Assembly (NCBI GenBank): GCA_001772615.1
Contig: MEUZ01000001.1
Span: 56,623-120,622 of the forward strand
From: a candidate division WWE3 bacterium RIFCSPHIGHO2_01_FULL_40_23
GTDB taxonomy: Bacteria > Patescibacteriota > WWE3 > UBA101185 > 2-01-FULL-41-18
Direction of reading: 5' to 3'
Length of the DNA stretch: 64,000 nucleotides
This document shows, in pieces, positions 5,671 through 59,485 of this stretch. The notes under the pieces were generated by a model. The model searched no databases, was not told the origin of the DNA, and saw only the letters and a list, made by a program, of their open reading frames with translations. The position numbers and the translations under genes were made by a program. Within the stretch, counting starts at the first letter, position 1, and every line of letters starts with the position of its first letter.

Positions 5671-5727
5671 GTCATTCCCGCGAAAGCGGGAATCTATCGG
5701 TAGATCCCGGATCAAGTCCGGGATGAC
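5671..5727 (-). repeat. 57-nt nested-palindrome element (GTCAT-hairpin-hairpin-ATGAC family) embedded in 23S rRNA 5' domain variable helix
   Basis: Sense strand gtcatcccggacttgatccgggatctaccgatagattcccgctttcgcgggaatgac aligns with MITE core at 17817-17873 with compensatory stem changes; located between conserved AGTAGTGGCGAGCGAAACGGG and downstream 23S sequence. Confidence 0.75.
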
Positions 5728-6420
5728 TAAAGTCAGATTCGGGTTTGGGCTCCGCCCGTTTCGCTCGCCACTACTCCGGGTATACAAATATTGTCTTTTT
5801 TCCATCTGCTACTAAGATGTTTCAGTTCGCAGAGTGCCTTTCACACAAACTATCTTTCGGCATTTCTGCCAAACCTTCGTTTGCGGATGTTCAAGGTTGT
5901 CCAAGAACAGGTTTCCCCATTCGGAAATCCCCGGGTAATAACGCCTCTTAGCGGCTCCCCGAAGCTTAACGCAGCTTAGTACGTCCTTCATCAGCACAAA
6001 GACCCTAGGCATCCACCATACGCTTTAATATCTTTTTAGATGCTTCATTTGTGGTGAAGTGTGCATACGCAACTTCACCACCCTGAAGTGATCCGCCAGT
6101 TGGCGGTTTCTACTTCAGGTCCTTGAAAATTGCTTTTGGAAAACAATTTTCGGTAAATCACCAATAGATACAAATCGGTACTCAATACCGCTTTTTTCGC
6201 CTCTATTAAGTGGTTTTATTCAATTTTCAAGGTACTTGCATTAACTTTTATGTTTTACTAAAAGCTAATGCAAGAACCCTTCAGTTCAGCTTGCCCTACT
6301 TCATCTGCCTCTGGCGGACTACGCGGGGCACACTTCACTATGCATATCTTGGGTTCATCAAGTGAAACTAAGAAGTAGCGAATGTTGGCCTGCCACGCGA
6401 AGCCACGCAGTGGCGAAGTG

Positions 6421-6497
6421 TGGTGGACCCAAGGAGACTCGAACTCCTTACCTCCACATTGCAAATGTGGCGCTCTAACCAGATGAGCTATGGGCCC
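6421..6497 (-). tRNA. tRNA-Ala (anticodon TGC)
   Basis: rc GGGCCCATAGCTCATCTGGTTAGAGCGCCACATTTGCAATGTGGAGGTAAGGAGTTCGAGTCTCCTTGGGTCCACCA; G3:U70 identity pair; encoded CCA. Confidence 0.95.
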
Positions 6498-6599
6498 GTA
6501 CCACATTTCACAGCGTGAAATATCAGATTTTTAAAACTAGAGCTTCTTCAAAGAGAAGATAGAGGATTTAATTTAATTTTACCATCCCGCAGGGAATAA

Positions 6600-6626
6600 A
6601 TTATCATCAAAAATCATGCCAGTCAA
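6600..6626 (-). promoter_or_regulatory. Candidate sigma70 promoter for tRNA-Ala-23S-5S unit (TTGACT-15-GATAAT)
   Basis: rc reads TTGACTggcatgatttttgatGATAAT upstream of tRNA-Ala, downstream of stop of preceding minus-strand CDS. Confidence 0.35.
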
Positions 6627-6654
6627 TAGCCCAAGCTATCAAAACCTTACTCTA

Positions 6655-7785
6655 TTAGTTTTTTACAAAAAACCACATCTTTGCCACACCCTCTTCATGG
6701 TTTAGCTCCCCTTTGCAGTAACTACAGGTAGAGGTTCCTTCCTTCACACCGACTGATCTCACCGCAAGCGAGTGCCAGCCATTTTCAAGCTGTTTGGTGT
6801 CAATTGAAATAGTCTGCCACGCATCATAAGCGCTAAAGTTGCCGTCTTTATCAAATAACACTACACCGGTTCTTGGCTTTACTTCAAGCCAGGGTCCCAC
6901 GGCAGGAATAGCATGCGTTCTATCCAAAACTGCGTTAAGATGCTTGCTTGGCTCCTGGGCTCTTATCCTTAAGGTTAAAGTCCCCGAAACGGGTGCAACC
7001 GGAACACAATCTATCAACGCATTGGTGTAGCCAAAGTCAGTGTACCAGGATCTCCCGGTTAAACTGGTATAAGGCTTTGCCTTGCATTTATTCTGCGAGG
7101 TGTAATTTGAGTCAGTCTTGCCGTTTTGAACATTTAACGGTACTCCGCTTGAGTTTAAAAAGCTCTTACCGTCAGGAGTGCCCGTTTCAGCTCTTATCCT
7201 AAACTCTCTCCACCCATCGGGAATCCTCGGAGTGCCATCAGACTTTAATGCCGCGGTATCAATGCTTACTTCCTGATTAAACGCGCAATTTAAATCTCCT
7301 TTAGAAGGAGTGTAAGTTGTGCCGTCGGCATATGTACATTTTTTATTTATGGCAATTCTTGGAAGTGTGCCTCTATCCGTATGGACTGCAAGATATTTAA
7401 GAGTTGACGGGTTGTTATGGATTACCATCCTGACATTAAATTTCAAAACTCCTGAAACCTCCTGCCCTAAAGGAAGGTTTGCCGCCGCGTGTATGTGGCC
7501 GTAGTTTGGAACCCACCATGCCTGAAGTTCAACTGGAATTTTCCTCGGATCAAAATAAGCTTTTCCGTTTGAGTCAACATAAGGAGGGGTTTCTGCAGGA
7601 AGTAGAGACCCATCCTGCGTATATGAAAGAACCGAAGCAGACGGTGAGGCCTTAAGGTCCATGAGAGACTTGGACTTTAATTTTTGATTAACAAGAAGAG
7701 CAACTAGTGCTAATGAGGAAACAACAAGTACTACAAGAAGAACGGAAATTAAACCTTTTTGGTTTTTATATGAGTTTTTAGGCAT
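6655..7785 (-). CDS. Hypothetical membrane-anchored protein (N-terminal TM helix, large extracytoplasmic domain)
   Basis: ORF 6655..7791; ATG at 7785 preceded by GAGG; TM segment LISVLLVVLVVSSLALVALLV; no recognisable catalytic motif. Confidence 0.6.
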   Translation of the reverse strand: MPKNSYKNQKGLISVLLVVLVVSSLALVALLVNQKLKSKSLMDLKASPSASVLSYTQDGSLLPAETPPYVDSNGKAYFDPRKIPVELQAWWVPNYGHIHAAANLPLGQEVSGVLKFNVRMVIHNNPSTLKYLAVHTDRGTLPRIAINKKCTYADGTTYTPSKGDLNCAFNQEVSIDTAALKSDGTPRIPDGWREFRIRAETGTPDGKSFLNSSGVPLNVQNGKTDSNYTSQNKCKAKPYTSLTGRSWYTDFGYTNALIDCVPVAPVSGTLTLRIRAQEPSKHLNAVLDRTHAIPAVGPWLEVKPRTGVVLFDKDGNFSAYDAWQTISIDTKQLENGWHSLAVRSVGVKEGTSTCSYCKGELNHEEGVAKMWFFVKN

Positions 7786-57697: not shown

Positions 57698-57816
57698 ATA
57701 AATTCCTTTCAGTTAAATTTAACACAAATGAGGTAAGATGTAGAAAAAAGAAGATTGCGGCTTACTGCCGCCAGTAAGAGAGGGTCAAATTAAAGTGGGA
57801 TATAACAAAACTCATA

Positions 57817-59121
57817 TCAATACTCCGAGGCCGCTTCGTAAGTTGACTCCAGATCCGAGATGACATCTTTAACTTTTGTTTCCAAGTCAAAAACGCTGAT
57901 TGACTTGGTCTCGTATTCTCCCATCATACCTCCACAATCCACTTTTCCATTACAAAGCTCAATCTCTTCATAAATAATTTTAGTAGGAGTTACCCAAGAA
58001 CCAAAAATGGCCTTGTCTAGCACCTTGCTATTTTTCTTAGTGGTGAAGTCGTAAAGCCAGATTTGTTTGTCGGGATAAACCGTATATAGAATTTTATTCG
58101 ATCCTGTTAAAACACTTGGACTGTACGACGCTTCATCTATTCCTTCAATCTTCCTTTGTGTTTTTGTGGTGATGTTGTATAGATACAGGCCATCTCCCTT
58201 TTTCTCATACTTTCTATACACAATTGTTTTGTCATCCAACCATTCCGGCTGGGTGGCCCCTGAAATCACTTGCTTTGAAAAATCGGATAAATTATAGACA
58301 TAAACGTTAAAGTCACTCGGGTTACGAGGAGATGAGGTTGAGATTTGCAGTAAATATTTTCCATCTTTAGAAAATCTAATTTTTTCACTATCCTCAATAA
58401 AACCTCCACGTCCATATGACCCAGTAGAAACATCTTCCAACGTTTTCAAAAGACCGTCATTAAAGAAAAATAACTGCCATTTTTCACCTGTTATAATCGC
58501 CGAAACCAAATAGGAAAACTTATTTGGTAAAGAAAAACCTGCTGTCAGAACAAACAAATCGTTGCTCAATTTTTTTCTCTCACTAATTTCCTTTGTTTCC
58601 AGATTAAGAGTATATAAACCGCAACCGAAATCACCCTTAACAATTCCGCATTTTACAAAACCAAGTGTGGCGCCATCTACTACTTTAATATGCCTGATTT
58701 CAATATCCGGGATTTGTTTTCCTTTTTCATCATAAGCAGGTGAAGAGCTTTTATTCTTGGGGTAGCTTGTCCATTTTGTTATCTCTTTTGACTTGGTGTC
58801 ATATGAAAAAATATTGTTATCCTTTGGATAGAAGATTTTGCCAGTTACAATGCCAACGGCTTGCGGAGTCACAGTGGGCATTGCTTCTTCCGATGGTAGA
58901 GCATCCGCAGGACTAGGAGTCGTGTCCGTTTGCAAGTTTTTATCTTGCTTTTGGAGGCCTCTAAACATAGTTCCGGCGTAAAAAACACCTGCAAGCAATA
59001 TGAGAGTAAGGAGAATTAAAAGTAAAACCTTAACCCAACCGTTTTTATTATTCCCGGTATAGATCCCTGTGGGCTGTGGCGGAGATTCTGAAAAGTTTTG
59101 GTTTTGTAGATTTTTTTGCAT
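57817..59121 (-). CDS. Hypothetical membrane-anchored extracytoplasmic protein (434 aa)
   Basis: N-terminal TM VKVLLLILLTLILLAGVFYAG; Pro/Thr-rich linker; no catalytic motif. Confidence 0.55.
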   Translation of the reverse strand: MQKNLQNQNFSESPPQPTGIYTGNNKNGWVKVLLLILLTLILLAGVFYAGTMFRGLQKQDKNLQTDTTPSPADALPSEEAMPTVTPQAVGIVTGKIFYPKDNNIFSYDTKSKEITKWTSYPKNKSSSPAYDEKGKQIPDIEIRHIKVVDGATLGFVKCGIVKGDFGCGLYTLNLETKEISERKKLSNDLFVLTAGFSLPNKFSYLVSAIITGEKWQLFFFNDGLLKTLEDVSTGSYGRGGFIEDSEKIRFSKDGKYLLQISTSSPRNPSDFNVYVYNLSDFSKQVISGATQPEWLDDKTIVYRKYEKKGDGLYLYNITTKTQRKIEGIDEASYSPSVLTGSNKILYTVYPDKQIWLYDFTTKKNSKVLDKAIFGSWVTPTKIIYEEIELCNGKVDCGGMMGEYETKSISVFDLETKVKDVISDLESTYEAASEY

Positions 59122-59289
59122 GATACCTTACTTTTATTTAATTTTAAGATATGGAATGAGTGGACGCAATGGCTGCGCCACGAATTGAGAGCCTACTCTC
59201 TGCCCTCCTACGCTACTTCGTAGCTTCGGAAGGGCACACTTCGGTAAGCTTTAGTGGCTTGCCACGCGAAGCTCCGAAGGAGCGAAGTG

Positions 59290-59364
59290 TGGTGCCAGCG
59301 GTTGGAGTCGAACCAACAGCATGAGCTTTATGAGGGCTCCGTTCCACCGTTGAACTACGCTGGC
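59290..59364 (-). tRNA. tRNA with CAT anticodon (elongator Met or lysidine Ile2)
   Basis: rc GCCAGCGTAGTTCAACGGTGGAACGGAGCCCTCATAAAGCTCATGCTGTTGGTTCGACTCCAACCGCTGGCACCA; fully paired acceptor stem. Confidence 0.85.
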
Positions 59365-59450
59365 GCATTAGGCTATTGAATTATATCAGGAAATGAGAAC
59401 TGGTTTTAACCACCCCGAACTAAAAATGTTGACATCCCCGATCTGACTTT

Positions 59451-59485
59451 GTCATCCCTGCGAAAGCAGGGATCTAATGGATCCA
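59451..59485. repeat. GTCAT-family hairpin (partial)
   Basis: gtcatccctgcgaaagcagggatctaatggatcc. Confidence 0.6.

Follow-up and report, generated by a model that had tools for sequence, protein, structure and literature searches.

Hairpin DNA repeats resembling CGTC-tagged REPs and Neisseria NTS in a probable CPR genome, with copies inside the 23S rRNA gene

Introduction

A family of short palindromic repeats is found along a 64-kb stretch of contig MEUZ01000001.1 (positions 56,623 to 120,622; hereafter the window, numbered from its first nucleotide), which comes from a probable bacterium of the candidate phyla radiation (CPR). These repeats are most probably small hairpin-forming DNA units of the CGTC-tagged repetitive extragenic palindromic (REP) superfamily, operating at the level of DNA and not of RNA, a reading to which we assign a probability of about 75%. 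The family is already known under two names, CGTC-tagged REPs and the Neisseria NTS/dRS3 repeats; what is new is the host lineage, the occurrence of variants with nested hairpins, and the insertion of copies into rRNA. An original prediction, drawn from the sequence alone, had described a 57-nt element at nine loci and interpreted it as a structured RNA. All nine loci exist as described, but the basic unit is half of the 57-mer, and several DNA-level signals point away from an RNA.

The repeating unit

The unit consists of [T]GTC, an 8-bp stem, a loop, the return stem, and C(TA). A pattern scan (GTCAT followed by a perfect stem) indicated that the stem of every unit is made of AT plus six variable base pairs. 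Twelve perfect units with a short loop of 4-5 nt were detected in the window, against none in 200 dinucleotide-preserving shuffles; all 12 begin with GTC, and the listed copies have a T before it. Three long-loop units with a nested hairpin and two degenerate units were found besides. Units fall into two types, designated as G-type (loop GAAA) and C-type (loop CTTGA), and are arranged in the 64 kb as six pairs and three single units (Table 1). Each 57-mer combines a G-type and a C-type unit in inverted orientation, with the GTC tags pointing outward. Not all of the loci first described are such pairs: those at 28151 and 59451 are single units, and 29267-29399 is a degenerate single unit followed by a pair. 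Membership of the hairpin at 6095-6108, which has only a 14-mer in common with the nested insert of the 29267 unit, is unproven because, by our estimate, about 15 chance matches of that length would arise in 64 kb.

The invariant bases of all good units are the GTC before the palindrome and the C after it. Conservation thus concerns the unpaired tag and tail and not the loops; the tail, which begins with C, reads CTA, CTT, CCA, or CTG. DNA folding reproduced the shape of the unit, with GTC unpaired in four of the five pair folds and in both single-unit folds. The GTCAT/ATGAC closing stem proposed for the 57-mer is not supported by these folds, the AT being part of each individual hairpin. A cloverleaf (four-way junction) was also considered for the 57-mer and excluded, as the folds consist of two independent 8-bp hairpins.

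The presence of GC-rich hairpins inserted in loops was confirmed. The three long-loop units have loops of 25-36 nt holding a nested hairpin, and CCTGCCTGCCGGTAGGCAGG is located directly 5' of CTTGA at 28151 and at 29399 (minus strand), as well as in the second of two insertions in the 23S rRNA gene (see below). A Parcubacteria metagenome-assembled genome (MAG; locus L143), the sole other fetched locus with protein-gene similarity to the window, exhibited a 94% match over 50 nt to the 28151 region. Since the insert is identical there and occupies the same loop position, nested hairpins appear to be passed on as a sub-family.

Table 1. Repeat units, pairs, and insertions in the window, and unit-flanked genes in other genomes (strand given after the position where it refers to a single unit)
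Feature	Position	Strand	Composition	Context
G-type units	5671+, 19811+, 27023+, 25560-, 17873-, 29329+, 59451+; degenerate 29267+			
C-type units	5727-, 17817+, 25504+, 27079-, 19867-; long-loop 28151+, 29399-			
Pair	5671..5727		G-type 5671-5694 +; C-type 5703-5727 -; tags outward	23S gene
First 23S insertion, 113 nt	5628..5740	-		Domain I (cmscan alignment)
Third, degenerate C-type unit	5639-5664	+	ATCATTCCGTACTTGTCGCAAGATCT	113-nt 23S insertion
Second 23S insertion, 42 nt	5565..5606	-		After Rfam LSU position ~313
Pair	17817..17873		C-type 17817-17841 +; G-type 17850-17873 -	Centre of MITE-like copy A, core 17769-17972
Pair	19811..19867		G-type 19811-19834 +, stem TCTGAC/GTCAGA; C-type 19843-19867 -	Independent; between two minus-strand genes
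Pair	25504..25560			Centre of MITE-like copy B, core 25456-25659, 31-nt terminal inverted repeats; between divergent genes
Pair	27023..27079			Centre of MITE-like copy C, core 26924-27127; inverted relative to copies A and B
Single C-type unit	28151..28195	+	20-nt nested hairpin CCTGCCTGCCGGTAGGCAGG in loop just 5' of CTTGA	Between fpg and recF
Degenerate single G-type unit	29267..29319	+	Tag ATCAT, no C tail; 32-nt nested double hairpin in loop	
Pair	29329..29399		G-type 29329-29352 +; C-type 29355-29399 - with nested hairpin	Between recF and NUDIX gene
Single G-type unit	59451..59474	+	Stem CCCTGC/GCAGGG	Between tRNA-Met and minus-strand ORF
Single-domain GIY-YIG gene	L069 858-1139			Lutibacter; flanked by units
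Single-domain GIY-YIG gene	L157 5315-5611			Flavobacteriaceae; flanked by units
Single-domain GIY-YIG gene	L161 1323-1601			Treponema; flanked by units

Stem covariation and orientation

The compensatory stem substitutions noted between window copies are real, as confirmed by locus comparison and pattern scan, and they extend far beyond this genome. A scan with the exact C-type pattern, in which four stem pairs were left free and one genome per species was searched, retrieved the unit from at least 118 stretches across bacterial phyla, with a locus GC content of 24-72%. The matches listed came from Patescibacteria, Bacteroidota, Alpha-, Gamma-, and Epsilonproteobacteria, Spirochaetes, Elusimicrobia, Dependentiae, and others. 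All four free pairs were complementary in 105 of the 121 distinct matches listed, as compared with a maximum of 31 in 1000 arm shuffles, and each free position displayed three or four types of base pair among these matches. This test is not circular, since the exact-pattern scans left the stem positions free.

Covarying stems had been taken as the signature of a structured RNA family, in which two hairpins and a GNRA tetraloop would act in processing, stability, or regulation. Most copies do occur in transcribed intergenic gaps and one lies inside an rRNA, their predicted RNA folds are stable, and REPs are established elsewhere as elements that can stabilise upstream mRNA (discussed in PMC3733652). 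However, the same covariation is displayed by published DNA hairpin repeats (CGTC-REP and NTS/SRM), and the conserved positions are in the unpaired tag and tail, not in the loops. The orientation of the repeats is equally difficult to reconcile with a fixed GNRA loop: because pairs face both ways, GAAA becomes UUUC in half of the transcripts, the 23S rRNA included. Relative to transcription, the C-type unit comes first in the 23S gene and at 19811 and the G-type unit at 27023 and 29329, while single units between co-directional open reading frames (ORFs) of other genomes are oriented 16:14. Wobble-type mismatches were symmetric between strands (six G.T versus seven A.C among the matches listed), and Rfam gave no match to the repeats, whether the entire window was searched at gathering thresholds or the 17600-29500 region at E<=1. 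The suggestion that copies mostly lie upstream of gene starts did not hold either, the gaps in this compact genome being one divergent, one convergent, and five co-directional. Finally, the Neisseria sequence is bound and cut only as single-stranded DNA (ssDNA), and SsnA, the only characterised partner of such repeats, cuts ssDNA and exhibits no interaction with RNA (PMC11893778). Taken together, these data make a structured-RNA family very unlikely, and the covariation of the stems would rather reflect the requirement for a DNA hairpin.

Identity of the repeat family

CGTC-tagged REPs were described as repeats with a CGTC/TGTC tag (often TGTC or CCTC), an 8-9-bp stem with A-T in the first two positions, a loop measuring 4 nt in family 1 and 5 nt in families 2-4, and a 3-nt tail with the consensus CCA (Di Nocera, De Gregorio and Rocco, BMC Genomics 2013, PMC3733652). 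They mostly occur as inverted pairs in intergenic regions, with no linked transposase and sometimes within longer palindromes, as with the embedded REP pairs of H. neapolitanus and A. variabilis; the class also takes in Neisseria repeats, Rickettsia RPE-4/6, and Wolbachia and Coxiella repeats (PMC3733652). Tag, stem, loop, and multi-copy pairs are all found in the window, the exact sequence of the tail being the one exception.

A second line of identification comes from Neisseria, whose 28-nt NTS reads CGTCATTCCCGCGMAVGCGGGAATCYRG (Chenal et al., Nat Commun 2025, PMC11893778). Four sites of the window match this motif with 2-3 mismatches, where none is expected by chance, and the G-type unit contains the dRS3 core ATTCCC-N8-GGGAAT. 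When viral contigs were scanned for the G-type unit, 52 loci were retrieved. Most of these are flanked by what look like Neisseria Correia elements and DNA uptake sequences.

The biochemistry of NTS is known from SsnA, a 94-aa GIY-YIG protein with a role, together with NTS, in the natural transformation of Neisseria. SsnA binds and cuts NTS only as single-stranded DNA and in one orientation, and recognises neither RNA nor duplex; cleavage needs three bases before the palindrome, binding needs the C after it, and the loop is dispensable and extendable (PMC11893778). The GTC and C that are invariant in the window units correspond to the bases required by SsnA, and the nested loop inserts observed here fit this tolerance of SsnA to changes and extensions of the loop.

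Copies inside the 23S rRNA gene

In the rRNA, which is transcribed from the minus strand, the 23S pair reads GUCAU-CCCGGA-CUUGA-UCCGGG-AUC...GAU-UCCCGC-UUUC-GCGGGA-AUGAC. Its G-type unit corresponds to the 28-nt NTS with two mismatches. As judged from the alignment with the Rfam large subunit (LSU) rRNA model, the pair is part of a 113-nt insertion (at positions 276-293), which has replaced the 16 apical nt of the hairpin spanning positions 274-296. The early proposal that one copy expands a variable 23S hairpin was thus well founded. The region of this insertion is predicted to fold, as RNA, into a long self-contained hairpin (-77.6 kcal/mol, z = -6.2). The second, 42-nt insertion is composed of CTCATA/TATGAG arms around CCTGACTGCCGACAGGCAGG plus CTTGA, which is the nested-hairpin module of the long-loop units.

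A metagenome scan for units within 45 nt of the conserved GGCGAGCGAA of 23S returned 117 stretches, most of which are not rRNA because this anchor is present in other repeats. One true case was identified, L194, an unrelated metagenomic 23S gene of only about 70% similarity, where the corresponding hairpin loop is occupied by a 96-nt insertion that includes a G-type unit (~560-660, minus strand) and is flanked by sequences that form an imperfect palindrome (CTTTGCACAGTTTTAAT ... ATTTAACTGTTCAAAG). Insertion of a unit into a 23S loop is therefore rare but not unique. Another candidate, L258, proved to be a false positive.

Classical 23S intervening sequences (IVSs) sit in helices 9, 25, and 45 and are cut out by RNase III. 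The insertion site in the window (Rfam LSU 276-293) falls outside these helices. The self-contained helix that the insert is predicted to add would be an expansion segment or perhaps an intervening sequence that is excised from the rRNA, and an IVS-like reading of the 23S copy is possible. The Coxiella IVS was placed in helix 45 (PMC4990558). In CPR bacteria, a 2024 survey found that short (<200 bp) non-intron insertions are common in 23S genes, with sporadic GIY-YIG ORFs; its text holds no mention of "palindrom" or "repeat" (PMC11270868).

Intergenic copies and a MITE-like repeat

Three of the five short-spacer pairs (17817, 25504, and 27023) ride in copies of a single repeat of about 204 nt resembling a miniature inverted-repeat transposable element (MITE), with 31-nt terminal inverted repeats (TIRs) and 98-99% identity between copies. 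Their central position in near-identical copies means that these three pairs are not independent. The arms of the MITE-like repeat had no match in any fetched locus, only the central pair being matched. Each copy is bracketed by its own site-specific inverted repeat of 22-34 nt (17687-18050, 25359-25724, and 26851-27205), and the three intergenic regions each fold as one hairpin of 330-375 nt with a predicted energy of -156 to -175 kcal/mol. The arms at 25359-25388 and 25695-25724 terminate at the start codon, or else at an in-frame ATG, of the two divergent genes, which thereby receive a nearly identical 27-nt leader, TGCAAAACAACATGCTATTATA..ATG. These bracketing arms may have been palindromic targets, or may have arisen by inverted duplication of flanking sequence.

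The palindromic nature of the 57-mer and its three near-identical copies might suggest that it is itself a conventional MITE, moved by a DDE transposase, with GTCAT/ATGAC as its terminal inverted repeats and with target-site duplications. The three copies, however, are identical only because they are carried in the ~204-nt repeat. Independent copies differ in their stems, half-units stand alone at 28151 and 59451, and no direct duplications flank the pairs. Outside the ~204-nt repeat the presumed terminal repeats amount to only 5 nt, against the ~15-30 bp usual for a MITE, and are really the tag and the first stem bases, and it is the half-unit alone that is conserved across phyla. A conventional MITE is accordingly considered highly improbable.

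Another repeat was observed next to tRNA genes. A 40-nt sequence occurs with 85% identity at 6386-6425 and 59255-59294, directly 3' of tRNA-Ala and tRNA-Met, and its small hairpin differs between copies by compensatory changes (GCCAC/GTGGC versus GCTCC/GGAGC). A further type of hairpin repeat is one possibility, and an element for tRNA 3' processing or for termination another.

Candidate enzyme and mobility

The single-domain GIY-YIG genes found in three captured loci of other genomes (L069, L157, and L161) encode proteins of 93-99 aa, which match Pfam PF01541 (E 2e-18 to 3e-15) and are 46-51% identical to one another. Being flanked by units, they reproduce the motif-ssn-motif layout of PMC11893778. 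The best candidate for an enzyme acting on the repeats would thus be a small nuclease of the GIY-YIG Ssn type.

Movement by a Y1 (RAYT/IS200-like) or other transposase, as for REP/REPIN-type elements, instead of a link with an Ssn nuclease, also deserves consideration. Inverted pairs of tagged hairpins are the exact layout of REPINs, and mobilisation of CGTC repeats by RAYTs or other transposases has been raised as a possibility (PMC3733652). However, the tag is GTC and not GTAG, and no Y1 or other transposase domain was detected among the 20 larger ORFs and the small unannotated ORFs tested in the window. The literature links NTS-like repeats to ssn and CGTC repeats to no transposase gene (PMC3733652, PMC11893778), and the unit-flanked genes of the three captured loci are of the GIY-YIG type. 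On this evidence, REPIN-type mobilisation is unlikely.

Several observations weigh against the reading of the units as CGTC-type DNA repeats served by such an enzyme. E. coli-type REPs have RNA-level side effects, and some RNA role for the transcribed copies is possible. The published SRM search motif, HGTCWYN(0-2)YYVSBRHN(0-5)WNVSBRGN(0-2)RNCYNB, matches only the two units of the 23S pair (5670-5697, plus strand; 5700-5728, minus strand; shuffles average 0.18); the remaining units miss it because their stems are AT-richer or their last tail base deviates. About 80 kb, made up of the 64-kb window and a further 16 kb of flanking sequence, contained no ssn gene of the cd10448 type and no other GIY-YIG gene, the window being searched by a six-frame motif regular expression, Pfam searches with all small unannotated ORFs joined as ten pseudo-proteins, and tblastn with three Ssn-like proteins; this leaves the enzyme link unproven for this genome. 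The extension of the contig, by about 8 kb on each side, was free of units as well. Assemblies of the same population were identical for the presence or absence of units, with none polymorphic, which gives no sign of mobility here; in this comparison, the one variant contig (L177) ends before the 23S 5' domain. Finally, no dedicated mobilising enzyme was found for CGTC repeats (PMC3733652), and the evidence on SsnA concerns cleavage and an effect on transformation, not transposition (PMC11893778).

A further observation concerns several unrelated genomes (loci L074, L098, L113, L126, L131, L170, and L077), where two or three partial copies lie in tandem upstream of the full C-type unit, each composed of the left arm (GTCATCC....) and 5-10 unique bases. 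This looks like repeated duplication on the 5' side of the hairpin, near the reported cut site of SsnA.

A proposed mechanism and its implications

The unit can be envisaged as an oriented ssDNA hairpin composed of an unpaired GTC tag, a paired stem that varies freely, a loop to which the system would be indifferent, and a C after the stem. Recognition would take place when the DNA is single-stranded, by a hairpin-specific enzyme. Compensatory changes in the stem would arise because the stem need only pair, and nested hairpins would be tolerated because the loop is free. The units may have spread as selfish or domesticated repeats.

Every layer of this system in the window is located at the tip of another hairpin: nested hairpins in the loop of the unit, the pair in the MITE-like repeat, this repeat in an intergenic hairpin, and the 23S copies at the apex of an rRNA helix. 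Such a layout has precedents in H. neapolitanus and A. variabilis (PMC3733652). New copies may reach hairpin tips either because apical loops offer a single-stranded target or because only such insertions are tolerated. The 23S copies would then be insertions into apical or internal loops of domain-I helices, where they are necessarily transcribed. It is tempting to speculate that NTS/CGTC hairpin repeats colonise rRNA helix loops in candidate-phyla bacteria and are a source of the short insertions of CPR 23S genes, that GIY-YIG ORFs found there are travelling ssn genes, and that nested hairpins record a loop-targeted, single-strand insertion; we regard this broader scenario as doubtful. If true, it would involve a mechanism so far undescribed for CGTC/NTS repeats.

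These data illustrate that stem covariation within a repeat family can stem from a DNA hairpin and does not imply an RNA gene. A class of repeats described chiefly in Proteobacteria is extended to a probable CPR host and, by the C-type scan, to contigs from a broad range of bacterial phyla. The window and L194 provide two cases of such a repeat building an extra 23S helix, suggesting an origin for some of the short rRNA insertions in CPR bacteria. If the link with Ssn holds, the window would also offer natural odd-loop substrates for a new class of ssDNA nucleases.

The rRNA operon and other insertions

The 16S and 23S genes both hold LAGLIDADG-encoding insertions. Together with the similarity to the Parcubacteria MAG, these insertions make a Parcubacteria/CPR source probable; Neisseriaceae, which the dRS3 identity might suggest, were rejected as the source because the rRNA genes are intron-rich and the nearest match is to that MAG. 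The 23S gene spans 1126-6041 on the minus strand, extending beyond its first Rfam match (2962-6041), with LSU model positions 2363-2637 at 3027-3300 and positions 2656-2912 spread over 1126-2219. A group I intron match is located within it at 1412-1736, and introns of the 23S 3' domain probably encode the two LAGLIDADG_1 ORFs (2379-2864 and 1572-2051). The sequences at 1055-1081 and 6121-6147 form an inverted repeat of 27 nt that resembles a 23S processing stem. The 16S gene (11675-14206, minus strand) measures 2532 nt as compared with 1533 nt for the model and includes a LAGLIDADG_2 ORF (12469-13227), consistent with an insertion of the intron type, as is typical of CPR bacteria. In the related strain L177 (compared with window 3187-4945; 99.5% identical downstream), the 3' half of the 23S gene has two extra LAGLIDADG ORFs, a sequence difference suggesting that intron content varies between strains of the lineage.

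The operon itself is broken up (6421-11675), with tRNA-Ala on the minus strand, tRNA-Ile (8303-8379) on the plus strand, and a radical SAM gene, an MFS fragment, and several ORFs without Pfam match between 16S and 23S. Elsewhere in the window, the FtsH gene (53529-56669, minus strand; 1046 aa) has an intein, Pfam Intein_splicing being recorded for an identical protein.

Comparison with known systems

The closest counterparts are the CGTC-1 and CGTC-2 families, which the G-type unit (4-nt loop) and the C-type unit (5-nt loop) resemble, respectively. Common features include the unpaired C/TGTC tag, the 8-bp stem starting with AT, the 3-nt tail, and an arrangement in intergenic inverted pairs, often of two unit types, with no linked transposase and at times within longer palindromes. 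The repeats of the window differ from them in the tail (CTA/CTT and not CCA), in the loops of 25-36 nt that hold a further hairpin in some units, in their probable CPR host, a group outside the survey of PMC3733652, and in the copies within an rRNA gene, which were not reported there (PMC3733652).

With the Neisseria NTS/SRM repeats, the G-type unit shares the 28-mer apart from 2-3 terminal mismatches, with GTC and C kept and the loop free, and in other captured genomes units similarly flank small GIY-YIG genes. In contrast, copy number here looks modest, ssn was not found in about 80 kb, and only two of the units fit the SRM motif. The Rickettsia palindromic elements RPE-4 and RPE-6, themselves CGTC repeats, are likewise short palindromes tolerated in genes of a reduced genome, but they occur in-frame in protein-coding genes (PMC3733652), whereas here the gene is that for 23S rRNA and the sites are helix tips. 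GTAG REPs and REPINs display tagged inverted-pair hairpins, ssDNA hairpin recognition, and stem covariation between sub-families; they differ in their GTAG tag and their Y1 HUH enzyme (RAYT), which was not found here. As for the 23S IVSs and the short CPR insertions, the feature in common is an additional helix that caps a variable 23S hairpin, within rRNA genes rich in insertions. Unlike the IVSs, however, the insert described here is located at Rfam positions 274-296 and is made of a genome-wide DNA repeat.

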